Origin: an uncultured bacterium
Lineage (GTDB): Bacteria; Krumholzibacteriota; Krumholzibacteriia; Krumholzibacteriales; Krumholzibacteriaceae
Length of the DNA stretch: 64,000 nt
NCBI GenBank assembly: GCA_964599375.1
Contig: CAZREW010000006.1
Coordinates: 28,285 to 92,284, forward strand
Direction of reading: 5' to 3'
The notes under the pieces were generated by a model. That model made no database searches. It had not been told where the DNA came from and worked only from the letters and a program-made list of their open reading frames with translations. The translations under genes and the position numbers were made by a program. Shown here piece after piece: positions 5,085 to 38,996 of the stretch (positions are counted from its first letter, which is position 1; each line of letters opens with the position of its first letter).

Positions 5085-6005
5085 ATGACGAACAGAAGAG
5101 AATTCCTCAGGATCCTGGCAGCCGGCGCGGCGGGAGCGATGCTTCCCGCACGGCGCCTCGGCGCACTTACCCAGCCGCAGTCCGCGGCCGCATCCTTCGG
5201 GGTGGCCAGGGGGTCGGACACCGTCGCCATAGTAAGGAAAGCGGTGGAGCTGGTCGGCGGGATGGCGTCCTTCGTCGACGAAGGCGACGTCGTGTTCGTC
5301 AAGCCGAACATATCGTGGGACAAGAATCCCGAGCAGGCCGCCACGACCAACCCCGTCGTAGTCGGGACAGTGGTGAGGATGGCCGTGGAGGCGGGCGCGA
5401 AGAAGATCATAGTCGCCGACAACGCGTGCAACGACGCGAGGCGCACCTACAAGAGAAGCGGCATCAAGGAAGCGGCTGAAAGGGCCGGGGCGAGCGTCCC
5501 GTTCATGGAGCAGCGCAGATTCGTCTCGACCGACCTGGGCGGAAGAGTGATGAGCGACTGGGAGGTCTACCGCGACGCGATAGAAGCCGACAAGATCATC
5601 AACGTCCCGATCGCCAAGCAACACGGCCTCTCCGAGGTCACCCTCTCGATGAAGAACCTCATGGGGCTTATCGGGGGAAGGCGCGACCTGCTCCACCAGA
5701 ACCTCCCCGAGTGCGTGGTCGACCTGACCGCCTACTTCAGGCCGACGCTCAACATCCTCGACGCTGTCAGACTGCTAAAGGCCAACGGACCGCAAGGCAG
5801 CACGCTGAAGGACGTCGTCGAGCTGAATACGGTCGCCGCAAGTGCCGACCCGGTGCGCATCGACGCCTTCGGCATTTCGCTTTTCGGGGATGCGCTGTTC
5901 AGCAACGACCCGGCGGCATTCCCCTTCATACAGGAGGCGATCGAGCGGGGGCTCGGCAGATCCGATTTCGCCGGTGAAGGATACATGGAAGTAAACCTCG
6001 GATAG
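5085..6005 (+). CDS. DUF362 domain protein with twin-arginine (Tat) signal peptide
   Basis: Start MTNRREFLRILAAGAAGA (RREFL Tat motif) with GAAGGGA RBS. Body resembles DUF362. Immediately followed by the polyferredoxin gene. Confidence 0.65.
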   Translation: MTNRREFLRILAAGAAGAMLPARRLGALTQPQSAAASFGVARGSDTVAIVRKAVELVGGMASFVDEGDVVFVKPNISWDKNPEQAATTNPVVVGTVVRMAVEAGAKKIIVADNACNDARRTYKRSGIKEAAERAGASVPFMEQRRFVSTDLGGRVMSDWEVYRDAIEADKIINVPIAKQHGLSEVTLSMKNLMGLIGGRRDLLHQNLPECVVDLTAYFRPTLNILDAVRLLKANGPQGSTLKDVVELNTVAASADPVRIDAFGISLFGDALFSNDPAAFPFIQEAIERGLGRSDFAGEGYMEVNLG

Positions 6006-6010
6006 GTGAC

Positions 6011-7567
6011 ATGAAAAACCTCAGAAGATTCTCGCAGATCCTGTTTCTCGCGTTCTTCTTCTACCTCTTCATCCAGACAGAGTACAAGGGGAGCGACGAG
6101 CTGGGGCTCCCGGTGAGGTTCTTCCTCGACTTCGACCCGCTCATCGCGCTGAGCTCGGTGCTGGCGACCCACGCCCTCAGGACGGTCTTCCTCCTCTCCC
6201 TCATCACCGTCGTCGTCTCAGTCTTCTTCGGGAGGGTATTCTGCGGCTGGGTCTGCCCCCTCGGCACGCTGAACACGATAGTAGGCTGGTTCAGGATGAG
6301 AAGGGGAAGGCCATCTCCGGACGACGGCCGCTTTCCGCGGCTGCGGCCGGTCAAGTATTTCATACTGGTATTTATACTCGTCGCGGCTGTATTCGGATGG
6401 AACGCCGCGGGGATCGTCGATCCGATATCGCTTACCATCAGGTCGCTCGCTATCGGCTACAACCCGGGCATCAACCATATCGTGCGAGCGGTCCTTGACA
6501 CGGCTTATGCCTCTAACCTGCCCGGCATCTCGCCTGCCGCCGACGCCGTCTACTCGATGATGGTCGGGACCGTCCTCGCCTTCGAGCAGCCTGTCTTCAG
6601 GCAGATGATCCTGATGGCCCTGCTGTTCTCGGCGATACTGGGGCTCAATCTTCTCGCGCCGCGGTTCTGGTGCAGGTACCTCTGCCCGCTCGGAGCGATG
6701 CTCGGCCTCATCGGCACGAAACAGATGATGGCAAGGGTCGACGTGAACGGCGAGAAATGCATCTCTTGCGGCAGGTGCAACAGGACGTGCCAGGGCGACG
6801 CCACTCCCTTCCCGCCCGGCCAGTGGGCGAGCAGGGAATGCCTCGTCTGCTACAACTGCCAGGACGTATGCCCGGTCACGGCCGTATCGATCCACCCGAC
6901 GACGCGCAGGACAGGCGACGGAAACGTCGACCTCGAGCGGCGCTGGCTCCTATCGACCGGAGCGGCGGCGCTGCTTGCGGTCCCGCTGGTGACACTGGGA
7001 GAGCAGCGCAAGCGCGTCCACCCCGATCTTATCCGTCCGCCTGGCGCGCTGCCCGAGAAGGACTTCGTCAAGACTTGCGTGAAGTGCGGCGAGTGCATGA
7101 AAGTATGCCTCACGAACGGGCTGCAGCCTACCTTCCATCAGGCCGGCCTGGAGGGGCTGTGGACCCCGATCCTCGTCCCGAAGCTCGGTTACTGCGAGTA
7201 CCACTGCAACCTCTGTACGCAGGTCTGCCCGACGGGAGCCATCCGGCACCTAGATATCAACGTTAAGCAGAGGACAAAGATCGGGATGGCGACCATAGAC
7301 AGGAGCAGGTGCATCCCTTACACCTACAACCGCAACTGCGGCGTGTGCGAGGAGCACTGCCCCGCTCAGGGGAAGGCGATACGCTTCACCGAGGAGGAGT
7401 CGTTCGACAGGAGGGGCGACCCGTTCATCCTCAAGAAGCCTCACGTGATCCCGCAGTTATGTATCGGCTGCGGGATCTGCGAGAACAAGTGCCCCGTCGT
7501 GGACATTCCGGCGATAAGGGTCTCCCCGCTCGACGAGAGCCGCAGCGACGCGAGGATCTACTTGTAG
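6011..7567 (+). CDS. Membrane-bound polyferredoxin (NapH/MauN-like; multiple 4Fe-4S clusters)
   Basis: N-terminal TM region with FCGWVCPLGT and CRYLCPLGA motifs. Six CxxCxxCxxxCP ferredoxin motifs in the C-terminal half (CISCGRCNRTC, CLVCYNCQDVCP, CVKCGECMKVC, CNLCTQVCP, CGVCEEHCP, CIGCGICENKCP). Confidence 0.8.
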   Translation: MKNLRRFSQILFLAFFFYLFIQTEYKGSDELGLPVRFFLDFDPLIALSSVLATHALRTVFLLSLITVVVSVFFGRVFCGWVCPLGTLNTIVGWFRMRRGRPSPDDGRFPRLRPVKYFILVFILVAAVFGWNAAGIVDPISLTIRSLAIGYNPGINHIVRAVLDTAYASNLPGISPAADAVYSMMVGTVLAFEQPVFRQMILMALLFSAILGLNLLAPRFWCRYLCPLGAMLGLIGTKQMMARVDVNGEKCISCGRCNRTCQGDATPFPPGQWASRECLVCYNCQDVCPVTAVSIHPTTRRTGDGNVDLERRWLLSTGAAALLAVPLVTLGEQRKRVHPDLIRPPGALPEKDFVKTCVKCGECMKVCLTNGLQPTFHQAGLEGLWTPILVPKLGYCEYHCNLCTQVCPTGAIRHLDINVKQRTKIGMATIDRSRCIPYTYNRNCGVCEEHCPAQGKAIRFTEEESFDRRGDPFILKKPHVIPQLCIGCGICENKCPVVDIPAIRVSPLDESRSDARIYL

Positions 7568-7609
7568 CTCTTTCCTGTCAAATGGGGGAGGTGGCGGCGA
7601 AACGGCCGC

Positions 7610-16146: not shown

Positions 16147-16175
16147 TTGTAAATTGATACGAATTATGATACAAT
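16147..16175 (+). promoter_or_regulatory. Candidate sigma-70 promoter (TTGTAA-N17-TACAAT)
   Basis: Read from the sequence, ~70 nt upstream of ATG 16244. Confidence 0.4.
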
Positions 16176-16243
16176 GCCTTTGTATCAGACCGGCACAGCG
16201 GCTATGCCGGATATGTTACTTATGCTTATTGGAGGGGAAGAGA

Positions 16244-16921
16244 ATGAAGGACTGCTTAAGGTTTCTCGCCGTAGTTCTTATCCTGTCGTTCGCCGGCGCC
16301 GCAAGCGCTGATCCGTGCCTAGTAGTGTATCCAGCAGGACCGTGCGAATATCACTACGACACCTCCGAATACTACACGGCAGGTCCCGGAGATCCATACT
16401 ACGACTCCGAGTATGACAGGGGCGGAGAAGTCCTGCTGGAGGTCGGCTCGAACGAGATCGATCTCAGCATCTACCAGGCTCCCATGATCGAGGGATTTGT
16501 TCCCTCGACCGGCGGCAACGAAGGCTATTTCTTCACGGGTACCGATTACGAGCTGATCATCGACGGCTACAGCAACCGCCCCATGACTTACGTGAACATC
16601 CTCGTCGTATTCGACGATTTCGTTCCCGAAGACTGCGTCGCCGAGATCACGGTCGGCGGGATGCCAGTCGTGGGTAACGTCTATGGCGCCGGCGACCTCG
16701 TGGTATCTACCCCGACGCCGGTCGGGAACAAGTACTCCGACACGATGACGATAGATATAGGCTGGCACGGATGCTACGGAGTCCATGTTTGGGCCTACTC
16801 AGACGAGGACTACAGTGGGACCCACGATGGCGGCGAATGCTTCACGGCGTTCTCGCACGACGCGACCATCCCCACGGAGGATTCGACCTGGGGAGCCGTC
16901 AAGTCGCAGTACGATAGATAG
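16244..16921 (+). CDS. Secreted hypothetical protein with C-terminal TWGAVKSQYDR tail
   Basis: Start at MKDCLRFLAVVLILSFAGAASA (GGAGGGGA RBS). Signal peptide. The upstream ORF-track extension has no RBS. Confidence 0.6.
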   Translation: MKDCLRFLAVVLILSFAGAASADPCLVVYPAGPCEYHYDTSEYYTAGPGDPYYDSEYDRGGEVLLEVGSNEIDLSIYQAPMIEGFVPSTGGNEGYFFTGTDYELIIDGYSNRPMTYVNILVVFDDFVPEDCVAEITVGGMPVVGNVYGAGDLVVSTPTPVGNKYSDTMTIDIGWHGCYGVHVWAYSDEDYSGTHDGGECFTAFSHDATIPTEDSTWGAVKSQYDR

Positions 16922-17097
16922 ACAGGCGGCATCTGTCCGCCGGATGACCATACCGTACCGCAGAAGACAGGATCAGTGCGCTGACTCTTGCCGCCCCGTT
17001 CCGCGGTACGGCGTGGCCATCTGATCGATTTGATATCTCAAGCCTTTTCCTATCTCGATAAAGGAATCCGGAGGGAACAGATCAAGGAGCCCCGCCC

Positions 17098-19785
17098 ATG
17101 AAAAAGAACGTGTTCTCCGAATCACGCATCGTCCACAGGATCTTCCTCCTGCTCATCGTGTTCGCCGTCGCCGCCGCGGTACTCATCCCCGAGTCGTCGC
17201 CTTTCGCGAAGAACCCTTACAGGAGGGAGTTCTTCAGCCAGCACCCCGAGGCTGTAGGAACGGCGATAGACGACGTGCCGAGCAATCCGGGCCACTGCGG
17301 CGTATGCCACTTCGACTTCAGCGGATCGGCTGCACGGAATCCTTACGGCCTCTCGGTAGAGGTCGGGTTGAACAACGGACTGACGATAGCCCAGGCGATA
17401 GCCGCGGTTGAATATAATGACGCCGACGGCGATAATTACACAAATCACACTGAAGCGACCGATATCGCGGGATTCTCGAACACCTCGACATTCCCGGGCC
17501 TGAATATCAATAACTATACCCTGGCGGTCAACGTCGACCTCGCCGACATAGTCGGATATCTCACGCCGACCGGCGCAACCGACACGATCCCGCCTTCGGT
17601 GGCCGTGAACGACCCGATGGGCGGAGAGGTCCTCCAGGCCGGCACATACTATTCCGTACTGTACGACGCGAACGACAATACGGGCGTGGACCATGTGAAC
17701 ATCTACCTTTCCGACGACAGCGGCGCTGAATGGTTCAAGACTGTCGCGAAAAACGAGACTCCGGGCACGGGATTCTCCTGGTTCGTCCCGAACTTCCCCG
17801 GAGATTTCAACAGGATAAGGGTCGAGGCCGTAGACATCGCCGCCAATAAGGGCAGCGGCGAAAGCATGGGCGATTTCACGATACTATCCACACCCCCGGG
17901 CTACGTCCCCTCGTCGCTGAGGGACATGGAGCTCCCCGGCACACAGCCTCACGAAGGAGCCATCCTCGACGATCCCGACGTTTCGTGCGCGACCTGCCAC
18001 GGTAACTACGACTCGAACGCCGAACCTTGGTACAACTGGCGAGGCTCGATGATGGCACAGGCGCAGAGGGACCCCATCTTTCTCGCGTGCGTCACCGTAG
18101 CCGAGCAGGACGCGCCTTCCGTAGGAGACATCTGCATAAGGTGCCACTCCCCGGGCGGCTGGCAGGAGGGCCGCTCGATCGACACCAGCGGCGAGATGAT
18201 CAACTCCAAGGACAGGCACTCGGTCCAGTGCGATTTCTGCCACAGGGTGGTCGACTTTAACTACGTCGCCGGGGTGAGCCCGGCGGTCGACGCCGAGGTA
18301 CTCGCGGATATCGACCCGCTTCCGCTCGCTTTCGCGAACGGGCAGTTCATAAACGATCCTTCGCCGCTCAAGCGCGGCCCTTATGCCGACGCCGAAGCGA
18401 GCCACCAGTTCGTCGAGTCTCCGATCCACAGGTCGTCGGAGATGTGCGGCATTTGCCACGACGTGAGCAACCCGGTGTTTCTCCACGTATCGACGGCCGA
18501 TTACGTACCCAGCGACTTCGACGCGGAACATCCCGACATGGACCTCAGGAACATGTTCCCCATAGAGCGCACTTACAGCGAGTGGACTCAGAGCGAATAC
18601 GCGTCGACCGGCGTATACGCCCCTCAGTTCGCCGGGAACAAGGCGGACGGGATCGTCTCATCCTGCCAGGACTGCCACATGAGGGACGTCAATGGCAAAG
18701 GCGCCAACGCCATCGGAGTCAACGACAGGGCGGATCTCGGGCTGCATGATTTCACCGGCGGCAACACGTTCATGCCTTCGACTATTGCGGACAAGTTCCC
18801 CGACGAGGTCAGCCTCGCCCAGCTGCAGGATGCGGAGGCCCGTGCAAGATACATGCTCCAGAACGCGGCTTCAATGACGGTGACTCCCGAAGATTTCGGC
18901 ATAACGGTCAGGGTCACGAACGAGACTGCGCACAAGCTCCCTTCAGGATATCCTGAGGGCCGCAGGATCTGGCTCAACGTCGTCGCTCTCGACGCGGCCG
19001 GCACCCCGATCTACGAGTCGTGCGCCTACGACAACGAGACGGCCGATCTATCGCACGACTCGCAGGCGAAGATATACGAGATCAAACCGGGCCTGAGCCC
19101 CGGTCTGGCTGACGCCCTTGGCCTGCCGGCCGGCAAGTCGTTCCACTTCGTCCTGAACGACACCATTTACGCTGACAACAGGATCCCGCCGAGGGGGTTC
19201 ACGAACGCCGGGTTCGAAAGCATCCAGTCGCCGGCGGTCGCGCATATATACGAGGATGGCCAGTACTGGGACGACACCCCATACTTGCTCCCGGTCGAGT
19301 CCGACTCGGTCATAGTCACTCTCTACTACCAGACGACATCGAAGGAATACACGGAGTTCCTGCGTGACGAGAACGAGACCAACTCCTCCGGGCAGGATTT
19401 CTACGATTCTTGGGTGGCGCACGGAAAGTCGGCTCCGGAGATCATGGTCCGCGTAAGGGCCGCGGTCAATGTGACGGTGACCGACGACGAGGTCGCCGGA
19501 ACGCCGCTGATCTACAACCTCGAGCAGAACTTCCCCAACCCGTTCAATCCGGCGACAAGGATCGATTACTCGATCGCGGAAAAGGCTCATGTCTTCATCG
19601 CCGCCTACGACGTTGCAGGAAGGCGGGTCAGCGTGATCGTAGACGCCGAGCAGGAACCTTCGCGCTACTCGGTGACATGGAACGGCACCGGCGACGACGG
19701 ACGCGCTCTATCCTCGGGTATTTATTTCATAAGATACCGTGCGGGTGGGTACACGTTCACAAGGAAGGCGGTGCTTCTGAGATAA
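17098..19785 (+). CDS. Multiheme c-type cytochrome (six CxxCH) with C-terminal T9SS (Por) sorting domain
   Basis: Signal peptide. CxxCH at CGVCH, CATCH, CIRCH, CDFCH, CGICH, CQDCH. C-terminus QNFPNPFNPATRIDYSI...GIYFIRYRAGGYTFTRKAVLLR matches the T9SS type-A CTD. Confidence 0.8.
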   Translation: MKKNVFSESRIVHRIFLLLIVFAVAAAVLIPESSPFAKNPYRREFFSQHPEAVGTAIDDVPSNPGHCGVCHFDFSGSAARNPYGLSVEVGLNNGLTIAQAIAAVEYNDADGDNYTNHTEATDIAGFSNTSTFPGLNINNYTLAVNVDLADIVGYLTPTGATDTIPPSVAVNDPMGGEVLQAGTYYSVLYDANDNTGVDHVNIYLSDDSGAEWFKTVAKNETPGTGFSWFVPNFPGDFNRIRVEAVDIAANKGSGESMGDFTILSTPPGYVPSSLRDMELPGTQPHEGAILDDPDVSCATCHGNYDSNAEPWYNWRGSMMAQAQRDPIFLACVTVAEQDAPSVGDICIRCHSPGGWQEGRSIDTSGEMINSKDRHSVQCDFCHRVVDFNYVAGVSPAVDAEVLADIDPLPLAFANGQFINDPSPLKRGPYADAEASHQFVESPIHRSSEMCGICHDVSNPVFLHVSTADYVPSDFDAEHPDMDLRNMFPIERTYSEWTQSEYASTGVYAPQFAGNKADGIVSSCQDCHMRDVNGKGANAIGVNDRADLGLHDFTGGNTFMPSTIADKFPDEVSLAQLQDAEARARYMLQNAASMTVTPEDFGITVRVTNETAHKLPSGYPEGRRIWLNVVALDAAGTPIYESCAYDNETADLSHDSQAKIYEIKPGLSPGLADALGLPAGKSFHFVLNDTIYADNRIPPRGFTNAGFESIQSPAVAHIYEDGQYWDDTPYLLPVESDSVIVTLYYQTTSKEYTEFLRDENETNSSGQDFYDSWVAHGKSAPEIMVRVRAAVNVTVTDDEVAGTPLIYNLEQNFPNPFNPATRIDYSIAEKAHVFIAAYDVAGRRVSVIVDAEQEPSRYSVTWNGTGDDGRALSSGIYFIRYRAGGYTFTRKAVLLR

Positions 19786-21235
19786 CCGTCTTTACAGGAT
19801 CCCGATGCCGGTCGGGATCGATATTCATCCTCTTGAGCTTCTTGAGAAGGCCCTGGCGGGTTATCCCCAGGGCCTTCGCAGTGCGGGTTCTGTTTCCCCC
19901 GAAACCCTCCAGCGCATCCACGATCATCCTTCTCTCGAGCCGCATCACGGCCTCGGGCATCGTACCCGCTTCCAGACCGGAATCCGTTACGGGAAGGATG
20001 CTCCCGCGCCCTTCCGGGATCCCCAGCATCGAGGCGGTGATCCTCACGGAGCCCGGGTTCATCGTCAAAACCCTCTCGATCTCGTTTCTCAGCTCTCGGA
20101 CGTTGCCCGGCCAGCGATAGCCGATGAGCCTGGACAGGGCTCCAGCGGTCATCGAGACGGGACGGCCGCTGAGCTGGAGCGAAGACTCGCGAAGGAACCG
20201 CGCCGTCAGGACCGGGACATCCTCGCTCCTCTCCCTGAGCGGCGGGATATGCAGCCTGACAGCACTGAGCCTGAAGTAGAGGTCCTCCCTGAATCTCCCC
20301 GCCCGGACAAGCCCCTCGAGGTCGCGGTTAGTGGCGAACACAAACCGCACATCGACCTTTCTGCTCCGCCCTTCGCCGAGCCTGCGTATCTCTCTCTCCT
20401 GAAGCACACGGAGCAGCGCCGCCTGAAGATGGACGGGAAGCTCCCCGATCTCGTCGAGGAAGAACGTCCCGCCGCCGGCCGCCTCGATCAGCCCCTCGCG
20501 GTCGCGGTCGGCCCCTGTGTAGGCTCCCCTGGCGCTTCCGAACAGCTCGCCCTGGAGAAGGCCCGCCGGCATCTCGAGGCAGTTGACCGCTATGAACGGC
20601 CCGGCGCGCCTCGGCCCGAGCGAATGGATGTTCCTTGCGACAAGCTCCTTGCCCGTCCCGCTTTCCCCGCATATGAGGACATGGATCCTGCCGGCGGCGA
20701 CCTTCCGGATGTCCTCCCTGAGAGAGACGATCGAAGGGGATATCCCGGCGATCGGCGGATCGAAGGGGCGGCCCCCTCCGGCCGCCGCCCCACATCCGCC
20801 GTGACCGGGCGCCAGAACATCGGCCAGCGGGAGAAGATGCTCGAGAAGCCCGAGCAGCTCACCAGCGGCAGAGATCCTTCTCGGAAGGAAGGACGGCGTC
20901 ATCTCGTTGAGCTCGAGGTCGAGAGAGACGGACATGCCTGCGAGCCTGCGCTCGAGGCGCCACTCGTTCCCGTATCCGCTCCCGTCCATCCGCCACACGC
21001 CGAACCCCCCCGCGGTCGATGCCGATTCCCTCAGGGCAAGTTCGGCGCTCTGGTCGGCGGGTACTCCACCGCATATCTCCAGGCCCGGCCCTCCCGGACC
21101 GGGTTCTCCCAAATATAATCGCAGGCGGGCCGCCGAGGCGCCGCACGCGCTGCAGAGAAGCCCCAGGCATTCCTTTATCGCCTTCCTCACCAGGTACTCT
21201 CCCGTCTCTGCTTCTGGTCCCCGCCGACACTTCAC
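19757..21235 (-). CDS. Sigma-54-dependent transcriptional activator (EBP) with N-terminal sensory domain and Fis-type HTH
   Basis: GESGTGKE Walker A, GAYTGA variant of the GAFTGA loop, ESELFGxxxG-type region, RFREDLYFRL, C-terminal HTH. The true start is uncertain (GTG at 21235; internal ATGs possible). Confidence 0.8.
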   Translation of the reverse strand: MKCRRGPEAETGEYLVRKAIKECLGLLCSACGASAARLRLYLGEPGPGGPGLEICGGVPADQSAELALRESASTAGGFGVWRMDGSGYGNEWRLERRLAGMSVSLDLELNEMTPSFLPRRISAAGELLGLLEHLLPLADVLAPGHGGCGAAAGGGRPFDPPIAGISPSIVSLREDIRKVAAGRIHVLICGESGTGKELVARNIHSLGPRRAGPFIAVNCLEMPAGLLQGELFGSARGAYTGADRDREGLIEAAGGGTFFLDEIGELPVHLQAALLRVLQEREIRRLGEGRSRKVDVRFVFATNRDLEGLVRAGRFREDLYFRLSAVRLHIPPLRERSEDVPVLTARFLRESSLQLSGRPVSMTAGALSRLIGYRWPGNVRELRNEIERVLTMNPGSVRITASMLGIPEGRGSILPVTDSGLEAGTMPEAVMRLERRMIVDALEGFGGNRTRTAKALGITRQGLLKKLKRMNIDPDRHRDPVKTVISEAPPSL

Positions 21236-23982: not shown

Positions 23983-23997
23983 TGGCACCATAAATGC
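23983..23997 (+). promoter_or_regulatory. Candidate sigma-54 promoter (TGGCAC-N5-ATGC; GG-N10-GC)
   Basis: Perfect -24 TGGCAC and a -12 TGC at the correct spacing, ~57 nt upstream of ATG 24054. Confidence 0.5.
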
Positions 23998-28882: not shown

Positions 28883-30346
28883 ATGATATCACTTGAACTC
28901 GACATAATATGCTCTGACTCCGATGTCCTGGGGACCACAGCAACAGACTGCGCTGAATCAGGATGGGAAGTGTCGAAGTTCTCCAGCGTGAGCGATTTCG
29001 TATCGAAAAGAGAGAAATCGGCCCCGCCCGCACTTATATTTGCCGGATCGGAAGTCGCCGGAAACAAGGACATCACTCCGGACGTCAAGACTCTGATAAG
29101 CTGGCACGGCCGGAATCCCGCCACCCAGCTTATCCTGCTGATACCGGAGGGCCTGAAAAACGAGGACAATGTCGCGCTGAGCCTGGGTGCGCGGCACCAG
29201 CTTCACATGCCATACGAGAGACGGGGCCTTCATCTTATCCTCAGCCAGATCGCCAGTGGCCTGGGTAAGCGCAAGCTTGATGAGGCCATCCGGGAAAGAG
29301 TGGCTAAACCGGAAGGGTTCGATGACATCATTGGCGTCAGCGATGCAATGCAGGAAATAATCGCCCTGGCGATCAAGGTCGGAAAAAGCGACTGCACATC
29401 GGTCATGATCACCGGCGAGAATGGCACCGGCAAGGGAGCCCTCGCTGGAGCCATCCATCAGATAAGTGCCAGGTCCTCCGGGCCGCTCATAGAGGTCAAC
29501 TGCGCGGCGATCCCTGCCAAGCTGCTTGAAAGCGAGTTCTTCGGCTACGAGAAGGGTGCTTTTACCGATGCCAAGGAAAGAAAGATGGGGCTGTTCGAGG
29601 TCGCCAACGGGGGGTCTATATTTCTCGATGAGGTCGGTGAGATCGACTTCAACCTCCAGGCAAAGCTCCTCAAGTTCCTCGATTCGAGGACTATAAGGAG
29701 GGTCAGCGGCACCCAGTTCCTGCCCGTAGACGTCAGAGTGATCTCAGCTACAAACAGAGACCTGAAGGCTGACGTTGAACTCAAGCGGTTCCGGGCCGAC
29801 CTCTATTACAGGCTCAACGTCGTGGAAATAAGGATCCCTCCGCTTCGAAACCGCAGGGAGGATATCCGCCCCATCGCCGAGACGTACACGAAAAAGTTCT
29901 CCAGCCGCCTGAAGAAGGGGGGTGTCACCCTCTCGAAAGACGCTTTCTCGCTTCTCGAGCGATACTCATGGCCTGGTAACATCAGGGAGCTGATAAATCT
30001 CATCGAGCGCGCAGTCCTCCTCAACACGACCGGGACCATTCATGCTTCCGACCTGCCGATCGACACGGAGACCCGCATTGAGGAAACAACCTGCCATGTC
30101 AAGAAAGAGAACGGAACCCTGAAGATCGATATTCCACCCGAAGGAGTCAGCCTCGAGCAGGTTGAAAAGGCAGTGATCGTAGGGACCCTGCTCAGGACTG
30201 AGGGTAATATCACCCGCGCGGCCCACCTTCTTGGGGTAGAACGGGGAACGCTGAGATACAAGATGAAGAAACACGGAATAGACGCTCACGAGCTTAAGGA
30301 AAAAATCAAAACCGGCGAATATGAGCCGGCTTGTATAACAAACTGA
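28883..30346 (+). CDS. Sigma-54-dependent activator (EBP) with atypical receiver-like N-terminus; GAFTDA loop variant
   Basis: GENGTGKGA P-loop, GAFTDA in place of GAFTGA, RFRADLYYRL, C-terminal HTH (ITRAAHLLGVERGTLRYKMKK). Confidence 0.75.
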   Translation: MISLELDIICSDSDVLGTTATDCAESGWEVSKFSSVSDFVSKREKSAPPALIFAGSEVAGNKDITPDVKTLISWHGRNPATQLILLIPEGLKNEDNVALSLGARHQLHMPYERRGLHLILSQIASGLGKRKLDEAIRERVAKPEGFDDIIGVSDAMQEIIALAIKVGKSDCTSVMITGENGTGKGALAGAIHQISARSSGPLIEVNCAAIPAKLLESEFFGYEKGAFTDAKERKMGLFEVANGGSIFLDEVGEIDFNLQAKLLKFLDSRTIRRVSGTQFLPVDVRVISATNRDLKADVELKRFRADLYYRLNVVEIRIPPLRNRREDIRPIAETYTKKFSSRLKKGGVTLSKDAFSLLERYSWPGNIRELINLIERAVLLNTTGTIHASDLPIDTETRIEETTCHVKKENGTLKIDIPPEGVSLEQVEKAVIVGTLLRTEGNITRAAHLLGVERGTLRYKMKKHGIDAHELKEKIKTGEYEPACITN

Positions 30347-30694: not shown

Positions 30695-31246
30695 ATGTCA
30701 GGACGAACCATAGCCCACAAATTCCTCACCGTTTCAACCTTCCTCAGTGTACTGGCTGCCATGGGTTGTGGATCCTACTCTCCTGTAACCCCCTCACAGG
30801 ATGACACTACGCCCGGTGTTGAGTTCCCCGTTTTCGTCCAGGTTCTCACCACCTCCGCGGGATCTTCTGGTCGAGATATGATGCAGACCACCTCAACCTC
30901 CGTCTCCATGGTGATTTCAGCTGAACTGGGCGGGACTGTGACAAACGGCTACGTCAGTTTGTACTTCCCGCCCGGTGCCCTCGATGTGGACACCGAGATA
31001 ACCATGGACATGCCCATGTACCCTCAGGCAATGGTTGAGCTGGGCCCCCACGGCATAGAGTTCAACAAAGCCGTGATCATGACCCTGCCCCTGGACAAGC
31101 TCGACTCAGACGCGACATCCTACAGGACGCTCTGGAACAATGAGATCGAAGGGATATGGGTAGACATAGGTGGACACGTCGAAAACGGCAACATAGTCTC
31201 GAAACTCGAGCACTTCAGTGATTATGGATATTTAGATCAGGGTTGA
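30695..31246 (+). CDS. Hypothetical lipoprotein (sigma-54-dependent by promoter)
   Basis: GGAGGTGG RBS before ATG 30695. Lipobox AAMGCGS. Confidence 0.6.
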   Translation: MSGRTIAHKFLTVSTFLSVLAAMGCGSYSPVTPSQDDTTPGVEFPVFVQVLTTSAGSSGRDMMQTTSTSVSMVISAELGGTVTNGYVSLYFPPGALDVDTEITMDMPMYPQAMVELGPHGIEFNKAVIMTLPLDKLDSDATSYRTLWNNEIEGIWVDIGGHVENGNIVSKLEHFSDYGYLDQG

Positions 31247-31272
31247 TTTAAATAAGAAACCTCACTTCTCTT

Positions 31273-31300
31273 AAAACCCTCTCTTTTGAGAGGGTTTTTT
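31273..31300 (+). terminator. Intrinsic terminator
   Basis: AAAACCCTCTC-TTTT-GAGAGGGTTTTTT. Confidence 0.8.
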
Positions 31301-31337
31301 ATTGATTTTCTCAAAGTACTTCTTAAAATCCCATTCC

Positions 31338-34300
31338 ATGGTTGAGAAGTATGGATTTCCTTTAAGGTACAGCAAGTTATCGACACTGGGTTCTGGTGGA
31401 ATCGGAACGGTTTTCAAAGCTTTCGACTCCCAACTTGACAAAGAAATCGCCATAAAGATTCTGAATAATCTAGATCGCGATCTATCAGCTTCTTTAGAGA
31501 ACGAATTCTCCACGCTGATCTCGCTGAACCATCCCAATTTGATAAAGGTATATGATTTCGGTCAGAGTGATTCAGGGCATTCATACTTCACTATGGATTT
31601 AATTCATGGGCAAAATTTAAATGATTATTTCTCATCTTCTTTGAAAGTCAGTTCTACCACTGATATTCTCGTGGGCATTCTTGATGCCCTTAGCTATTTG
31701 TCAAAAAGAAACATAATACACGGAGATATCAAACCTGAGAACATACTCATTCCTGATGGAAACGATTCACACCCAGTGCTTGTAGATTTTGGGCTTGCTC
31801 TTATTGCAGATTCAAATCAAGACAAAGTGTTCGGGACACCAAGATTTCTTGCTCCGGAGATCCTGTTATCAAAACAGTATTCCTCAAAAAGCGATCTTTA
31901 TGCTCTTGGACACACATTTATAGAAAGCTTAACAAAGCACAAGACAGTACTTGCTCATGAGTTGACTGATAGTTATCTAAGCGATGCATATGAATCTCTA
32001 TGTTACCTCTTCGAAGAGAGGGACATTGAATATCCGAGGAATCTAGCTTCATTCATTGTCAGTCTCTCCAATCCATCTCTTTCTTTACGTCCAGACACTA
32101 TTTCACAAGCTATTCTTAAACTATCGACAATTTCTACGCCTTCATGCGAAGCAAACACAATTCTTAACCCTGAATACGTTGCTCGAGAAGAAATCGACAA
32201 TTCTATTGAAATATTTATAGATAAGAACAGTTTTGACAATAGATCTCTTTTACTTGAAGGCCCTATTGGTACCGGAAAGAGAACACTGATGGGAAGAGCT
32301 ATCAGTAAAGCTCAGTTATTGAAATTCAAGGTTTTAATGTATAGCGATATTCCTGAAGAAAGATTCTCTCTAAATGTTTTTATAGATTCGCTCTCAATGA
32401 ATCTGCCTGCTCCGCTGAGTAATAATTTGTTTGAACAACACAACCGACTTTTAAATAGCATCAAGAAGGCTGAAGCAACTCCAGACCTTGATAACCTGGG
32501 AGTAATTTATAGCAATATCATTGAACATATTTCGCTCCTTTCAAAGGAACAGCCGGTATTAATCGTTATTCCAAACATCGAAAGTCATGGAACTGATACC
32601 TTAAGATTTATCAAGCACTTAGTAGACGAAATAGACTATCTCGGCGCGAAGGCAAAGATTCTCTTATCTCATTCAACAGATCACATTCGTGACAACACTT
32701 TTTACGAACAACTAAGTTCGCTTAAACACAATCTATCTCTCCTACATATTCGAGGATTTAGTGCATCAGAAATAAAACAGTACTGTCACAATATTTTTGG
32801 ATGCGATTTGTTTACAAATGGAGAAATCAATTCCTTTTTGTCTATCACAAATGGGAATCCTCAATATCTTTTCGACTACTTAAACTACCTGATAATGAAC
32901 GGAATCATTACTAAGAATGAGCGAACATATTATGCGGACCATAAACAAATAAATAGGACATATTCTCTGACTAGAAATGATGTAATCGTTGATAGTATAA
33001 TTTCTCATTTACTCCCTGATGAATTGCATTTCCTTCAATTACTTTCTATTTATGATTATCCAATTGACATCACTCATATGAAATTTTTTATCTCCTATGA
33101 TCTGCCAACTATAATCGATACTTGTGAAATTGCATCATTAATAGAAACGCACAACGGCATAATATGTTTGAAGTCCCCAGCCTTTAAATATCACCTCAAT
33201 AATAATATTAATGATTCTTTACAAATATCGCTTAATCGAATCCTTGCTGATTATTCAGTTAAAGCTAACCCAAATAACTACGCATTAATAGCAAATCATT
33301 ATATCAAGGCGCATGCAATAGATGAGGCCTATGAATACGCAACCAGAGCATATGAAAAGCACCTTGCGCAACATGAGTATTATTCAGCCTATAATCTATT
33401 TGTTTCTCTTAGTAATTTGATTGAAGACATTAATAGTACAGAGATCAAAATTGATATATTGGAAAAATTGAGTTCTCTGGAGTTCACACTGGGGTATTCA
33501 GACGATTCTCTAAATAACTATTTAAAGCTAATAGATATATCTACTGACCAAATTTCTATTGCTAGGTATTACAACAAAATCGGGCGTATAGAGCGCTACT
33601 TCAGAGGAAATACGAATAAGGCAGTCGAATATTTTAATCGTGCTCTTGACATAGCCAAAAAGAATGCAGCAACTGAAGTTGAAGCCGAGGCATTGCTGTC
33701 TCTTGGACTCGCATTACAAAATGCTTCGTTTGTGGAAGCATCAGCCGATCTTTCTAAAGGAATTCTTTTAAATCAATATGTTCGTGCTTTAGGAATAGCT
33801 ATGCAATTGTACACTTTTTCAGGGAATTCAGAGAAATGCCAAACAATTGAGGTAGAACTTGATAGGTACCTCTCAACCGATGATCCAACTATTCTTTCAT
33901 ATATATACGATGCAAAATACCTATACTCATTCTATACAGGTGTCTATTCGGTAGCTGACACCATGCTTCGAAACCTTATCGATCTTGCAAAACGCTCATT
34001 TAATGAAACGGCGCGCATCCGACACCTGAATGCTCTGGGAAGCATATATTACTCTCAAGGCAAATTTAGGCTCCAAATCGATACATTAAGGAATGCTTAT
34101 CATCTTGTTAATAAATATCAATTCCCCCTGCATAGAATACTGACTCTTTCCAACATGGCATTAGCCCATGTTGCACTTGCAGAATATTCAATAGCCATTC
34201 GGTTGATTATCGAAGTTAGATCATACGCAGAAAAGCATAAGTTGTCTAATATACCAACTTACCATTATTCTATTGGAGCTGGAGCATTCATGCCACTCGG

Positions 34301-34934
34301 CAAACTACAAAACGTTAATTTTCATAGATATCTAGAGTTGCTCAAGGAAACAGCGGAAAAGTCCAAAAATATTATCAGCCTTGGCCACATGGATCTTAAA
34401 TATGGAGACTATTACTACTTTGCAGATCAGTCCAATGATTCGAAGAAACATTATTTAAAGTCAATCGACATTTTTCGAACCACGAACGCCAAAGACGACA
34501 TGCTGGAGGCTTTGCTGAAGCTTTCGCTTGTGCACAGGAACATTAACGATCACAAAATGGCGCATGACTATGCGAGGCAAGCGGCGAAGATATTCAGGGA
34601 GATTAATTGCGGGTATCTGAAGCCGCTGTACAGCTATGTCATGGCGTTGAACGAGTGCCACGATGATCCCGAGTCCCTGGCCCCGATGCTGGAGGCGATA
34701 AACGTCTCCAGGGCATTCGGGACCAGGGAGTGGACATGGCAGATCCAGTTTCACCTGGCGCGGCTGTACAGAGAGGCTGGCGACATCTCCAATTCAGTGA
34801 AATACTGCAGGGAATCGATCAACACCCTCAAGGAGATAACCGAATCGTTCGACGATCCGGACCAGACATCCTCCTACCTGCAGGTGCCGCTCAGGCGTCA
34901 GGTCTTCGATTTCGTGAAGTCCTTGAGATCCTGA
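31338..34934 (+). CDS. Hanks-type Ser/Thr protein kinase fused to STAND/AAA-like NTPase and TPR repeats (PknK-like architecture); AT-rich, mosaic GC
   Basis: Kinase motifs GSGGIGTVF, IAIKIL, HGDIKPEN (non-RD), DFGLA, GTPRFLAPE. P-loop LLEGPIGTGKRT. Long TPR-like C-terminus. The first ~3.15 kb is AT-rich and the last ~450 nt are GC-rich. ATG 31338 preferred over TTG 31302, which overlaps the upstream terminator. Confidence 0.8.
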   Translation: MVEKYGFPLRYSKLSTLGSGGIGTVFKAFDSQLDKEIAIKILNNLDRDLSASLENEFSTLISLNHPNLIKVYDFGQSDSGHSYFTMDLIHGQNLNDYFSSSLKVSSTTDILVGILDALSYLSKRNIIHGDIKPENILIPDGNDSHPVLVDFGLALIADSNQDKVFGTPRFLAPEILLSKQYSSKSDLYALGHTFIESLTKHKTVLAHELTDSYLSDAYESLCYLFEERDIEYPRNLASFIVSLSNPSLSLRPDTISQAILKLSTISTPSCEANTILNPEYVAREEIDNSIEIFIDKNSFDNRSLLLEGPIGTGKRTLMGRAISKAQLLKFKVLMYSDIPEERFSLNVFIDSLSMNLPAPLSNNLFEQHNRLLNSIKKAEATPDLDNLGVIYSNIIEHISLLSKEQPVLIVIPNIESHGTDTLRFIKHLVDEIDYLGAKAKILLSHSTDHIRDNTFYEQLSSLKHNLSLLHIRGFSASEIKQYCHNIFGCDLFTNGEINSFLSITNGNPQYLFDYLNYLIMNGIITKNERTYYADHKQINRTYSLTRNDVIVDSIISHLLPDELHFLQLLSIYDYPIDITHMKFFISYDLPTIIDTCEIASLIETHNGIICLKSPAFKYHLNNNINDSLQISLNRILADYSVKANPNNYALIANHYIKAHAIDEAYEYATRAYEKHLAQHEYYSAYNLFVSLSNLIEDINSTEIKIDILEKLSSLEFTLGYSDDSLNNYLKLIDISTDQISIARYYNKIGRIERYFRGNTNKAVEYFNRALDIAKKNAATEVEAEALLSLGLALQNASFVEASADLSKGILLNQYVRALGIAMQLYTFSGNSEKCQTIEVELDRYLSTDDPTILSYIYDAKYLYSFYTGVYSVADTMLRNLIDLAKRSFNETARIRHLNALGSIYYSQGKFRLQIDTLRNAYHLVNKYQFPLHRILTLSNMALAHVALAEYSIAIRLIIEVRSYAEKHKLSNIPTYHYSIGAGAFMPLGKLQNVNFHRYLELLKETAEKSKNIISLGHMDLKYGDYYYFADQSNDSKKHYLKSIDIFRTTNAKDDMLEALLKLSLVHRNINDHKMAHDYARQAAKIFREINCGYLKPLYSYVMALNECHDDPESLAPMLEAINVSRAFGTREWTWQIQFHLARLYREAGDISNSVKYCRESINTLKEITESFDDPDQTSSYLQVPLRRQVFDFVKSLRS

Positions 34935-36503: not shown

Positions 36504-38996
36504 TCACGTGCGGCGGTAGTACCTGTCGAGGCCCGTCTTCTTCAGCTCCTTGTACAGCTTGCCTCTAGAGATCCCCAGCCAGCGCGCCGCCGCGCTCTTG
36601 TTGCCCCTGCAGATGTTCATCGCGCTCTCGATCCTGCGCCTGCTGCTGTCGCCGTTTCCCTGGAAATCCAGATCATGCGTACCTGCCGGAACTCCAGTCA
36701 TCCTGTCAGGCAGCATCTCGATCGTGATGGGAGAATCGCTCGCATAGCAGCTCAACCTGTCAGCGATCGATATCAGCTCTCTGACGTTGCCGGGCCAATG
36801 ATATTTCTGGAAGACAGAGAGCACGCCCCGGTCGATCCGCACCGTTCTTCCGCCGTTACCGTTGCCGTTTCCACAGAGGCGCCAGACCATAAGGGGGATG
36901 ATATCCTCACGGCGGTCACGCAGCGGAGGGATATGGATCCTTTCCGAGTTGATCCTGAAGAAAAAATCCTCCCTGAGCGACAAATCGCTCAGTTTGCTTC
37001 CTAGATCCTGATTCGTGGCTGAGACCAGTTTTATATCGACCTCTTGCTCGCCGTTCTCCCCGAGCCTTCTGATCCGCCCTTCCTGCAGCACCCTGAGCAA
37101 CTTGGCCTGGTGAAGCGTCGACAGCTCCCCCACTTCATCGAGAAAGAGCGTGCCTCCACTCGCTTCCTCGAAGAAGCCACGCCTGTCAACGACGGCGCCG
37201 GTGAACGAGCCTTTCCTGTGCCCGAAGAATTCGCTCTCGAAGAGATGGTCCGGGATCGCAGCGCAGTTGACGGCTACGAAGGGACCCGAAGCCCTCTCGC
37301 TCGAATTGTGGATCAGCCTGGCGACAAGCTCCTTTCCCGTTCCGGTCTCTCCCGTCACCAGGACCGGCCCCCTATATGACGCCGCGAACTGTATCCTCTC
37401 CCAGACATCGTGCATGACGGGCGATACGGCTACCATTCCGTTGCAGACCTTGTAGTCGCTCGAGAAACCTACCTCTATCAGATCTGAGTCAGTTTCACCG
37501 CTCTGGTACAGCCTGGCGGGCACCGCGCCGCCCCGTCTTTCGTGGCCGAGCAGGCTGTCTACCCGATCGACCATGAGCTGTGCGTTCATACCGGCGAAAA
37601 GATGGCGGGCTTCCCAGAGCAGGCTCCAGGGCTCAACCGCCTTGCTGTTTCCCGTGATCTCCGCCTTTTGGGCCTTATCCGTCCTCGACAAAAGGGTCTC
37701 CGCATATATGAGGCAGGTCCTGGCCAGCTCGAATGTGCTTCCCGATCTCCTGATAAGAGCCTGCGCGCGCTCAAAAAGTGCCTTTACGGTGTCGAGATCC
37801 ACGCGGCAGGCTTCCGCCCTGCCCATGGCCCTGAAGACAAGACCCAGCTCAAGTGGAGCGTCCAGTCCCCCGGCAATGCTCTCTGCATCCTCGAGACGAT
37901 CCCTTGCCGCTTTAATATCGCCCCGCGCGATCTCGAGCTCGCCCGTCTTCCTGGCGATCTCAGCGGCCACGTCACCGACGGGGGCAATCTCCGACACGAT
38001 GTCCCGAGCCCGGGCCAGGCAGTTCTGCGCCATCACCAGATCGCGCCTGCTGATGTGTATCGAAGCTATGCCGGACAGGGACAGGGCCAGTTCTCGCCTG
38101 TAGCCCTGCTCCTTCGCGAGCCGGGAGGCGTCCGAAAAGAGCTCGAGCGCCTCATCGAGGGCATCGCGCCTGCTGGCCGCGTTTCCCAGGGCAATAAGGC
38201 ACCTGCACCTGCCGATATGCCAGTTTACACGCTCGAAGAGCGAAGTGGCCTTGATGAACGACCGCTCGGCCGAGTCGCTCTCGCCCATGTGGAACTGCGT
38301 TATTCCGAGATTGAGCAGGGCTGCCGCGAGGCCGTACTCATCATCGTTCTTCGAGCATGCGGCAGCCGCCCTTCTGAGGTCGTCGGCGGCTTTTCTCATG
38401 AAGCCGAGCCTTCTGAGGACGAGCCCCATCATCGTCAGGACCCTGGCTCTCAACTTCCAGCTCGACACCGAAGTCGTAAGCCCTAGGGCGGTCTCGAGGA
38501 TCTCCCTGGCACGCAGGGTATCATCGAGGAAATAGCAGCAGGCTCCCTCGATAAGGTATTTCTCCCCCGCCAGCGTTCCGTCGAGACAGTTCTCGACCGA
38601 CCCATCCATATCATCAAGCTCCTGCAGCGCGGCGCGGTATTCTCCCTGCCTCCTGAGGATATTCGCCCTGATCACGGCTGCTTCATAACGCTCGCAGCAG
38701 GCGTCGACCTCGACTGACCGGATAAGCTCTGCAAGCATGTCGAGGTATATCGAGCTTTCGTCGAATCCGCTCAGATAGTAGGAGTTCCTGGCAGCGAGAA
38801 GGAGGACGCGCGCTTCCATCTCGAACGGGACAGGCTCCCGCTCGATGGCGGACAATGCCTCTCTCGTCGCTATAAGCGCACTCCTGTAGTCACCTGTGGC
38901 CTGGTGGCCCTGCGCTTCGGTTATGTACCTGTCCACGGTCTCGTGTCGTTTACGCATGGTATCGGTCGGCCCCGTGCTATCTGAATATCGGTCCAA
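36504..38996 (-). CDS. Sigma-54-dependent activator with large N-terminal TPR-repeat domain (TPR-AAA+-HTH)
   Basis: ETGTGKE, GSFTGA, FFFRINSERIHIPPLRDRRED, C-terminal HTH. ~480-aa N-terminal region of TPR-like helical repeats. Confidence 0.8.
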   Translation of the reverse strand: MDRYSDSTGPTDTMRKRHETVDRYITEAQGHQATGDYRSALIATREALSAIEREPVPFEMEARVLLLAARNSYYLSGFDESSIYLDMLAELIRSVEVDACCERYEAAVIRANILRRQGEYRAALQELDDMDGSVENCLDGTLAGEKYLIEGACCYFLDDTLRAREILETALGLTTSVSSWKLRARVLTMMGLVLRRLGFMRKAADDLRRAAAACSKNDDEYGLAAALLNLGITQFHMGESDSAERSFIKATSLFERVNWHIGRCRCLIALGNAASRRDALDEALELFSDASRLAKEQGYRRELALSLSGIASIHISRRDLVMAQNCLARARDIVSEIAPVGDVAAEIARKTGELEIARGDIKAARDRLEDAESIAGGLDAPLELGLVFRAMGRAEACRVDLDTVKALFERAQALIRRSGSTFELARTCLIYAETLLSRTDKAQKAEITGNSKAVEPWSLLWEARHLFAGMNAQLMVDRVDSLLGHERRGGAVPARLYQSGETDSDLIEVGFSSDYKVCNGMVAVSPVMHDVWERIQFAASYRGPVLVTGETGTGKELVARLIHNSSERASGPFVAVNCAAIPDHLFESEFFGHRKGSFTGAVVDRRGFFEEASGGTLFLDEVGELSTLHQAKLLRVLQEGRIRRLGENGEQEVDIKLVSATNQDLGSKLSDLSLREDFFFRINSERIHIPPLRDRREDIIPLMVWRLCGNGNGNGGRTVRIDRGVLSVFQKYHWPGNVRELISIADRLSCYASDSPITIEMLPDRMTGVPAGTHDLDFQGNGDSSRRRIESAMNICRGNKSAAARWLGISRGKLYKELKKTGLDRYYRRT

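Follow-up and report, generated by a model that had tools for sequence, protein, structure and literature searches.

A six-heme c-type cytochrome with a pentaheme/Ig-like core and a putative T9SS sorting domain in Krumholzibacteriota

The gene at positions 17098..19785 (+) of the window, by which we mean the whole 64-kb stretch of DNA that was analysed, encodes an 895-aa product whose sequence supports its identification as a secreted-type six-heme c-type cytochrome, and which is probably a cell-surface redox protein from a large unstudied family. The fuller architecture that we propose for this cytochrome, consisting of a Sec signal peptide, an N-terminal extension, a PHC (pentaheme cytochrome) core and a T9SS type A C-terminal domain, is put forward, together with export for electron transfer at the cell surface, with roughly even confidence. 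The N-terminal extension, which comprises one heme and an Ig-like domain, is lineage-restricted. The features of the gene and its product are the following:

17084..17089 (+), Shine-Dalgarno-like AAGGAG, seen in the sequence 8 nt 5' of the ATG
17098..19785 (+), whole gene, six-heme c-type cytochrome precursor of 895 aa, from the ORF list, translation and motif count; the stop codon lies within the coordinates
17098..17178 (+), predicted Sec signal peptide, aa 1-27, with a basic N-terminus, a hydrophobic IFLLLIVFAVAAAVLI and AAA preceding the likely cleavage site
17206..17577 (+), first part of the N-terminal extension, holding a single heme and, at aa 108-113, a DxDxDG-type motif; its invariant residues were seen across 57 and 117 homologues
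17593..17886 (+), second part of the N-terminal extension, an Ig-like beta-sandwich, from a weak Big_7 match and an all-beta model
17905..18777 (+), pentaheme domain, aa ~270-560, with CxxCH at aa 297, 346, 378, 450 and 523
18820..19467 (+), Ig-like beta-sandwich, aa ~575-790, packing against the heme domain, from alignments to MccSep (9wt8), ExtKL and 5ze8 and from conservation
19525..19782 (+), putative T9SS type A C-terminal sorting domain, aa ~810-895, from TIGR04183, family tails and PDB profile matches

The open reading frame starts with ATG, and its translation carries CxxCH motifs at aa 67, 297, 346, 378, 450 and 523, which account for 12 of the 14 cysteines of the protein; C331 and C642 are the only cysteines outside the motifs. 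Against the six motifs observed, 5000 residue shuffles yielded a mean of 0.0048 and a maximum of 1, and all six are retained in 119 of 120 close homologues. At the N-terminus, a hydrophobic, signal-like stretch occupies aa 15-30 and the signal region forms a single helix in the structure model (aa 8-28), the putative cleavage site being read from the sequence. The first-pass annotation, which had described a secreted protein of 895 aa with six CxxCH motifs, is borne out in this respect by the reading frame, its six motifs and a signal-like N-terminus.

Within the N-terminal extension, the monoheme motif H66-C67GVC70H71 (nt 17293-17310) is followed by a region, aa 167-263, that consists of beta strands only in the structure model and for which Pfam PF17957 (Big_7) gave a match under threshold (E 0.01). 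Five-heme relatives lack the N-terminal extension and, among six-heme members, the sixth heme is accompanied by H66 (63 of 63) and H444 (62 of 63). His478 was considered as a ligand of the extra heme and rejected, being uncorrelated with the six-heme form.

The core adopts the fold of PHC proteins and Thermochromatium tepidum c552, in which a five-heme alpha-helical domain is followed by an Ig-like beta-sandwich; it can be superposed on 5ZE8, which the family profile matches at E 2.1e-10. The core-only structure model, built from a diverse alignment, reached a pLDDT of 95.4 and a pTM of 0.93; the full-length model had low confidence over the hemes, with a pLDDT of 67.6 there. Candidates for distal ligands in the pentaheme domain are M319, H436, H550 and possibly H444, and the Ig-like domain contains the H612-KLPSG-Y618-PEGRR loop (nt 18931-18966), H683 and a DNRIPPRG motif (aa 693-700). 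Across 191 members, M319 is conserved in 183, H436 in 184, H550 in 187, H612 in 186 and H683 in 173, with His instead of Met at position 319 in 4 members and in 5ze8. These five conserved non-motif residues are candidate ligands for the five core hemes.

The same core could belong to a redox enzyme rather than to a conduit. As a MccSep-like enzyme, the protein would take up its substrate through a channel that separates the heme domain from the Ig-like domain, and would act on it at core heme 2. The part of the Sec/Cys pair of MccSep would fall to the Tyr618 loop together with a ligand that is His/Met or labile, and the substrates would be soluble compounds outside the cell or in the periplasm, for instance polysulfide, peroxide or oxyanions of sulfur or nitrogen; we regard this as possible but on the unlikely side. 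MccSep, a proven enzyme, has the same pentaheme cap and Ig-like architecture, and Tyr618, which is kept in 62 of 63 six-heme members and 164 of 191 overall, aligns exactly with its Sec325 (HKLPSGYPEGRR vs HSIPDGUPTPNR). The Ig-like domain holds the invariant, Arg-rich EGRR and DNRIPPRG, the small number of hemes per length and the very strong cross-phylum conservation count against a simple conduit, and at 4 loci, drawn from 3 phyla, the adjoining gene belongs to the CCP_MauG diheme peroxidase family and in one case has a T9SS tail of its own. However, both catalytic residues of MccSep are absent, with no Cys at the C239-equivalent segment; of the cysteines outside the motifs only C331 is conserved, and most of the wider family has Ala, Thr or Asn in its place, while C642 is not conserved there either; and substrate-related genes are not linked at 81 loci. 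In addition, every heme has enough conserved ligand candidates, and therefore no open coordination site is evident.

The reading that we prefer, a cytochrome exported for electron transfer at the cell surface, draws on its C-terminal domain. The first-pass annotation had quoted a C-terminal tail, which we located in the protein as '...LEQNFPNPFNPATRIDYS...SSGIYFIRYRAGGYTFTRKAVLLR*', and had assigned it to T9SS. This assignment stood up in the profile searches, in which NCBIfam TIGR04183 scored 26.2 bits on the whole protein and 31.8 bits on the tail alone against a cutoff of 23 and matched 38 of 38 family tails (E <= 0.01), although Pfam PF18962 (Por_Secre_tail) stayed below its gathering score (21.8 vs 27). 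The domain, modelled with a pLDDT of ~90, sits at the extreme C-terminus without exception and carries the motifs PNPF and G-x-Y-F before a basic terminus; in related genomes, many unrelated neighbouring proteins end in the same tail type.

Homologues number 2414, more than 100 of them being full-length proteins with 60-90% identity; the family forms 710 clusters at 50% identity (E <= 1e-30), and relatives occur in at least 586 species genomes. Identity across phyla is 50% or higher, and the heme density is about one per 100 aa. In public annotation the family appears only as "T9SS type A sorting domain-containing protein" or "hypothetical", and outside the window the identical protein has a single known occurrence, on a 7.4-kb contig. 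A T9SS tail is present in at least 47 of 80 genome loci, almost only in FCB-type lineages, and these loci include those of the cultured carriers Mangrovibacterium marinum DSM 28823 and Gilvirhabdus luticola MJ-SS3; cultured Bacteroidota orthologues bear the same tail type at 28-48 bits against the TIGR04183 cutoff of 23. Planctomycete orthologues carry dockerin-like (Dockerin_1-like) repeats at the C-terminus, and other orthologues carry different C-terminal tags. Because a C-terminal sorting or anchoring tag is common across lineages, the destination is read as non-periplasmic, and the pattern of tags, T9SS in FCB-type phyla and dockerin-like in Planctomycetes, argues for a surface or extracellular location.

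It is improbable, when set against these tails, that the domain is unused for T9SS in this lineage or is a mere FlgD-like Ig module, which would leave the cytochrome as a periplasmic carrier like T. tepidum c552. Such a location would agree with the Por_Secre_tail score under its gathering value, with the resemblance of the query tail to FlgD_ig (25.6 against a threshold of 27), and with the PDB matches of the tail profile, which comprise the CTDs of PorU, PorZ and gingipain as well as FlgD, the last (E 4e-6) being stronger than the PorU tail (E 0.003). The two PHC relatives that have been characterised are soluble or periplasmic proteins, the ORFs scanned in the 64-kb window include no T9SS core gene, and the literature searched yielded no report tying Krumholzibacteriota to T9SS. 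Yet the curated TIGR04183 cutoff is passed and all family tails tested match, the position and motifs of the domain are those given above, Bacteroidota orthologues bear canonical tails scoring 38-47 bits, dockerin-like or other tags replace the tail outside FCB-type lineages, and the tail recurs on unrelated neighbour proteins. The likeness to FlgD is confined to its Ig-like part (aa 822-878), with no FlgD N-terminal domain in the protein and no flagellar gene nearby.

In its genomic neighbourhood, the cytochrome is the sole CxxCH protein among window ORFs of at least 100 aa, and its surroundings in the 64-kb window encode neither a second cytochrome nor a quinol dehydrogenase nor an outer-membrane conduit. 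No conserved operon partner was found over 81 loci, no neighbour family occurring in more than about 6 of the 81; at 6 loci the gene immediately upstream codes for a CRP/FNR-type regulator. Apart from these regulators and the 4 CCP_MauG genes, the repeats among the neighbours were antisense shadow ORFs alone. The organism belongs to Krumholzibacteriota, and a Krumholzibacteria MAG has been enriched in an iron-fed reactor (PMC7914226). The upstream 255-aa ORF (16154-16921) of the window gave no family match and has no homologue among the ORFs of four of the loci (L001-L004), and a sigma-54 promoter consensus is absent upstream of the gene, despite a convergent sigma-54 activator.

Proteins that bear dockerin tags or leave the cell through T9SS are typically surface enzymes or enzymes that degrade polymers. 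An electron-shuttling accessory for extracellular polymer breakdown (e.g. for polysaccharide, lignin or humic oxidative enzymes), as opposed to a respiratory terminal reductase, would suit this background, the Dockerin_1-like repeats of the Planctomycete orthologues, the lack of linked respiratory genes at 81 loci and the carrier lineages, whose secreted CAZymes and numerous secreted multiheme proteins have been pointed out (PMC11495043), but it is speculation built on sorting tags, neither CAZyme nor oxidase genes adjoin the cytochrome gene with any consistency, and we give it a very low likelihood.

For the preferred reading of an exported electron-transfer cytochrome, we infer both export and the extracellular role from domain architecture, because there is no conserved neighbour, and no T9SS machinery gene in the window. 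The precursor would cross the inner membrane by Sec and receive its six hemes in the periplasm, as the predicted signal peptide and the CxxCH motifs suggest; the folded holo-protein would be recognised via its C-terminal domain and moved across the outer membrane by T9SS, to which the tail match and the lineage-matched tails of the relatives point; and, after transit, the tail would be removed and the cytochrome released or tethered at the cell surface. There, a chain of six-coordinate hemes, probably four bis-His and one His/Met in the core plus the extra N-terminal heme, could pass electrons from the cell to an extracellular acceptor, or to the cell from an extracellular donor, possibly at a specific site next to the conserved Tyr618 loop.

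A broader reading, which is tentative and in our estimate has less than an even chance by a clear distance, is that PHC cores with lineage-specific surface tags constitute a widespread, undescribed class of extracellular penta-/hexaheme oxidoreductases, that the T9SS of FCB-type bacteria exports fully heme-loaded cytochrome, and that the His/Met heme and the Tyr618 loop form a new catalytic or docking site. To our knowledge, envelope electron transfer outside Shewanella and Geobacter is largely unknown, including in Bacteroidota and uncultured FCB-type phyla. Uncultured FCB-type phyla dominate sediments, soils and sludge; if the class reading is true, many uncultured sediment and soil phyla would gain an extracellular redox route independent of Mtr/Omc. 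If the cytochrome is exported, T9SS would carry covalently heme-loaded cargo, and the protein would represent an extracellular redox candidate that is testable because cultured carriers exist. The earlier remark that fusions of multiheme cytochromes with T9SS tails are rarely discussed agrees with the literature searched, in which we found no paper treating multiheme cytochromes together with T9SS or T9SS export of a holo-cytochrome.

Among known systems, MtrC is a lipoprotein whose export runs through type II secretion, and a porin partner is encoded alongside it. The cytochrome resembles the Shewanella decahemes MtrC and OmcA in combining multiple hemes with beta-sandwich domains and in the surface location proposed here, but differs from them in heme number and arrangement, and a porin partner of the MtrC kind is absent from the window and not recurrent at 81 loci. 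Homology to OmcA/MtrC and OmcZ, which had been raised as a check for this protein, was not significant: the Pfam family for MtrC/MtrF domain II/IV (PF22113) scored 25.8 on aa 294-384 against a threshold of 30, the Foldseek comparison with MtrC 6qyc gave E 0.17 and TM 0.16, and no significant fold or PDB sequence match to MtrC/OmcA was obtained. OmcS and OmcZ were likewise rejected, with no chain of either among the PDB sequence matches at E <= 1 or the top fold matches.

T9SS type A cargo of Porphyromonas gingivalis (gingipains, PorU, PorZ) combines a signal peptide with a C-terminal beta-sandwich of ~80 aa matching TIGR04183, a plan that the cytochrome, given its predicted signal peptide, would share. 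Known T9SS cargo consists mainly of hydrolases, adhesins and motility proteins, whereas the cargo here would be a covalently heme-loaded cytochrome, for which no report was found in the literature searched.

In the PHC family of cable bacteria and Geobacter, sPHC proteins are ExtKL and LPC-like and lPHC proteins are GSU2801-like; the members are described as periplasmic, and some have truncated-hemoglobin domains (PMC11976967). The domain plan of the cytochrome, pentaheme plus Ig-like, is that of PHC, and its large core fits the description of 'large' PHC, a likeness drawn by description and not by sequence; in contrast to the truncated-hemoglobin domains of some PHC proteins, it carries the putative T9SS tail. 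With MccSep/ExtKL (GSU2937-2936, Geobacter sulfurreducens, PDB 9WT8), it has in common the pentaheme cap and Ig-like stem, a similar last heme motif region (CQDCHM in the cytochrome vs CQECHM in MccSep) and an aligned loop of the Ig-like domain that reaches the active-site heme. The alignment to 9wt8 is weak and partial (E 0.016), and NF040886 (ExtKL), which matches at E 8e-9 and covers no more than aa 516-641, scores 34.5 bits where its equivalog cutoff is 250. MccSep is a polysulfide reductase selenoprotein and forms a periplasmic homotetramer without a sorting tail (10.1101/2025.11.18.688581). An identity as a MccSep-type polysulfide reductase was rejected for the cytochrome: Sec325 is replaced by Tyr618, never by Cys or Sec among the residues listed for the 191 members, the heme-ligating Cys239 is missing, and aa 490-522 contain no Cys. 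The newly characterised MccSep/PHC family would thereby gain a branch with Tyr replacing selenocysteine.

The core fold itself is that of the low-potential pentaheme cytochrome c552 of T. tepidum (LPC, 5ZE8). LPC is a soluble protein of ~385 aa without an assigned function, whereas the core here spans ~520 aa with long insertions and has Met instead of His at position 319 and Tyr instead of Ala at position 618; to this shared fold the cytochrome adds an N-terminal monoheme/Ig-like extension and a putative T9SS tail, both of which LPC lacks.

The cytochrome gene and the motif preceding its start codon are as follows:

17098-19785, + strand: intact ORF from the ORF list, encoding the 895-aa cytochrome
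8 nt 5′ of its ATG, + strand: AAGGAG, read from the sequence

The encoded protein contains CxxCH motifs at residues 67, 297, 346, 378, 450 and 523, which account for 12 of its 14 cysteines; residue shuffles of the same protein gave a mean of 0.005 motifs and at most one. Its N-terminus, a basic stretch followed by a hydrophobic one, resembles a Sec signal peptide. The first-pass annotation had described an 895-aa secreted-type protein with six CxxCH motifs, which the ORF, the motif census against shuffles and the signal-like N-terminus bear out, and the C-terminal sequence that it quoted is present (...NFPNPFNPATRIDYS...SSGIYFIRYRAGGYTFTRKAVLLR).

The NCBIfam model TIGR04183 (T9SS type A sorting domain; cutoff 23 bits) gives 26.2 bits for the full-length protein, 31.8 bits when the tail is scored alone, and matches 38 of 38 diverse family tails (best E 2.4e-11), in agreement with the earlier claim of a Por-secretion-type tail. 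Pfam Por_Secre_tail stays below its threshold on this protein (21.8 against 27), FlgD_ig scores similarly, and the tail profile retrieves FlgD Ig-like domains from the PDB, with PorU, PorZ and gingipain tails as weaker matches. The domain always occupies the extreme end of the protein, and unrelated neighbouring proteins in related genomes share this tail type (four consecutive ones in locus L002, one 1154-aa ORF in L001); this is how a modular sorting tag behaves. On profile evidence, the sorting tail of the cytochrome is judged to be real. One Krumholzibacteriota homologue (locus L083, match 6001-7594 plus downstream sequence) keeps six hemes and has an aberrant C-terminus other than the sorting domain (…RLRHLPASSAGERADSHPEGDAHA), likely a frameshift or assembly error; the closely similar L017 has a normal T9SS tail.

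Pfam hints for the heme region were all sub-threshold (MtrC/MtrF domains, cytochrome c7, c554), the ExtKL selenoprotein model matched partially (E 8e-9, residues 516-641), and the best PDB sequence match was Geobacter MccSep (9WT8, E 0.016). A first AlphaFold model of the full-length protein was poor in the heme region; a core-only model (residues 266-800, 54 diverse relatives in the alignment) reached a pLDDT of 95.4 and a pTM of 0.93, and the family profile recovers LPC c552 of Thermochromatium tepidum (5ZE8) by sequence at E 2.1e-10, with collinear segments. Because of this model and profile match, the core, a pentaheme domain plus an Ig-like domain, is assigned to the pentaheme cytochrome (PHC) group, which takes in LPC c552 and ExtKL/MccSep (PMC11976967; bioRxiv 10.1101/2025.11.18.688581). 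An MtrC/OmcA-, OmcS- or OmcZ-type identity is ruled out, and the OmcA/MtrC/OmcZ homology raised by the first-pass annotation proved wrong, which leaves its interpretation supported in part. An iron-fed reactor was enriched for a Krumholzibacteria MAG that carried Cyc2 and an "OmcS" marker match (PMC7914226).

Candidate distal ligands were counted over 191 family members. M319 is present in 183 and replaced by His in four, as also in 5ZE8; axial-ligand positions typically show such a Met-to-His exchange. Together with H436 (184/191), H550 (187/191), H612 (186/191) and H683 (173/191), this gives five conserved candidates for the five core hemes, and H66 (63/63 six-heme members) and H444 (62/63 six-heme against 96/128 five-heme forms) go with the sixth heme. 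From conservation, not coordinates, we infer that all hemes are six-coordinate and that the core combines four bis-His hemes with one His/Met heme.

A word-indexed search returned 2414 homologues, among them over 100 full-length proteins with 60-90% identity; the named entries bear the title "T9SS type A sorting domain-containing protein" and come from Candidatus Krumholzibacteriota, and the window ArgS places the organism in Krumholzibacteriota. Exhaustive searching (E <= 1e-30) yielded 710 clusters at 50% identity, and a species-genome scan found at least 586 genomes with relatives. Two architectures occur, the five-heme core alone and a six-heme form with an N-terminal monoheme-plus-Ig extension of ~255 aa, and the C-terminus differs by lineage. 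T9SS tails, present in at least 47 of 80 loci, are found in Krumholzibacteriota, Eisenbacteria, Latescibacterota, Zixibacteria, Gemmatimonadetes, Fibrobacteraceae, Ignavibacteria and Bacteroidota, including the cultured Gilvirhabdus luticola and Mangrovibacterium marinum (28-48 bits against TIGR04183). Planctomycetes homologues carry dockerin-like repeats (Dockerin_1 25.8 bits), Verrucomicrobia and some further groups have other tails, and a few contigs bearing the sorting domain fall, by MAG labels only, outside FCB-type lineages (Hyphomicrobiales, Thermoleophilia, Deferrimicrobium). The strongest evidence here that the protein works outside the periplasm is this pairing of a single conserved core with sorting tags suited to each lineage. 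Among six family representatives (P0181, P0190, P0196, P0259, P0262, P0237), some end in a short '...YLPLVLR'-type motif and others in a hydrophobic helix and then an Arg run, each a putative sorting or anchoring signal.

The cytochrome gene appears to stand alone. The 255-aa ORF on its 5′ side is unconserved, and the sigma-54 activator gene on its 3′ side is convergent with a 29-nt overlap; among window ORFs of 100 aa or more, no other contains CxxCH, no T9SS component was found among the window ORFs scanned, and clustering of flanking ORFs from 81 loci found no conserved partner gene. Only two neighbours recur in these loci, a CRP/FNR-type regulator in six and a diheme CCP_MauG peroxidase-family gene in four:

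L030 5012-5782, CRP/FNR-family regulator
L034 4951-5676, CRP/FNR-family regulator
L035 269-988, CRP/FNR-family regulator
L050 1452-2153, CRP/FNR-family regulator
L058 3284-3979 (-), CRP/FNR-family regulator
L065 4381-5100, CRP/FNR-family regulator
L037 4158-5699 (+), diheme CCP_MauG
L034 3030-4499 (-), diheme CCP_MauG
L047 3840-5015 (+), diheme CCP_MauG
L054 3832-5013 (+), diheme CCP_MauG

The regulator, in some cases with an N-terminal Cys-rich stretch, lies directly upstream of the homologue in several phyla and hints at oxygen- or redox-dependent control. CCP_MauG genes adjoin the homologue in three phyla (Bacteroidales, Eisenbacteria, Planctomycetes); the Bacteroidales product scores 27.7 bits against Por_Secre_tail (Pfam threshold 27), and the tail of the Eisenbacteria product is similar. 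A further class of c-type heme protein thus carries a T9SS tag, which suggests that the cytochrome is not an isolated case.

Five sigma-54 enhancer-binding proteins are encoded within ~23 kb of the window:

19757-21235 (-), sigma-54 enhancer-binding protein
28883-30346 (+), sigma-54 enhancer-binding protein
36504-38996 (-), sigma-54 enhancer-binding protein
39899-41548 (+), sigma-54 enhancer-binding protein
42083-43093 (-), sigma-54 enhancer-binding protein

TGGCAC-N5-TTGC-like (sigma-54) sites occur in the window at 23983, 30619 and 39753, none of those found lying upstream of the cytochrome gene. A fused NapH-like/NapG-like polyferredoxin (518 aa, 6011-7567, +) is encoded ~10 kb 5′ of the cytochrome gene and could form a quinol-oxidising module in the membrane; the other loci showed no link between the two. 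Two paralogous NAD synthase-family genes (58734-59699, +; 61660-62649, +) flank an acyl-CoA ligase gene (60096-61640). A low-GC island of ~3.6 kb (31100-34700; 32-39% GC against ~60% background) coincides with a single 1210-aa ORF (31302-34934, +). This ORF combines a Ser/Thr kinase at the N-terminus (PknB-like, 3e-41; partially matching the MADS6 antiphage kinase) with a P-loop (GPIGTGKRT) and a C-terminus of TPR-like type. It resembles a STAND-type protein gained by horizontal transfer and may serve in defence.

Alongside the demonstrated architecture, fold, tail match, conservation and distribution, we infer a route to the extracellular electron transfer first proposed. The precursor would be exported by Sec and receive its hemes in the periplasm, the folded holo-protein would be translocated by the T9SS and displayed at the surface, and the six-heme chain would exchange electrons with an external partner. 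The main rival is an enzyme acting at a Tyr618/His-Met site, a role favoured by the enzyme-like heme density, the very high conservation across phyla, the invariant Arg-rich motifs and the CCP_MauG genes that sometimes adjoin it. That the protein stays periplasmic and leaves its tail unused is less likely, because the sorting tags match the lineage.

Among known systems, MccSep is a periplasmic polysulfide reductase whose Sec325, carried by a D-G-U-P loop in its Ig-like domain, lies beside heme 2, which is ligated by Cys239 (bioRxiv 10.1101/2025.11.18.688581). In the cytochrome, by contrast, the Sec position is occupied by Tyr (aligned loop H612-KLPSG-Y618-PEGRR), a residue kept in all 117 close homologues and in 164 of the 191 wider members, and the segment equivalent to Cys239 contains no Cys; both defining features of an MccSep-type catalytic site are thus absent, and the non-motif cysteines of the protein are not conserved across the wider family. 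No paper on multiheme cytochromes combined with T9SS was found in the literature searched. PHC cytochromes and T9SS tails are each already known by themselves; what is new is that the two occur together, with an added heme module at the N-terminus and in a branch that has Tyr in place of Sec.
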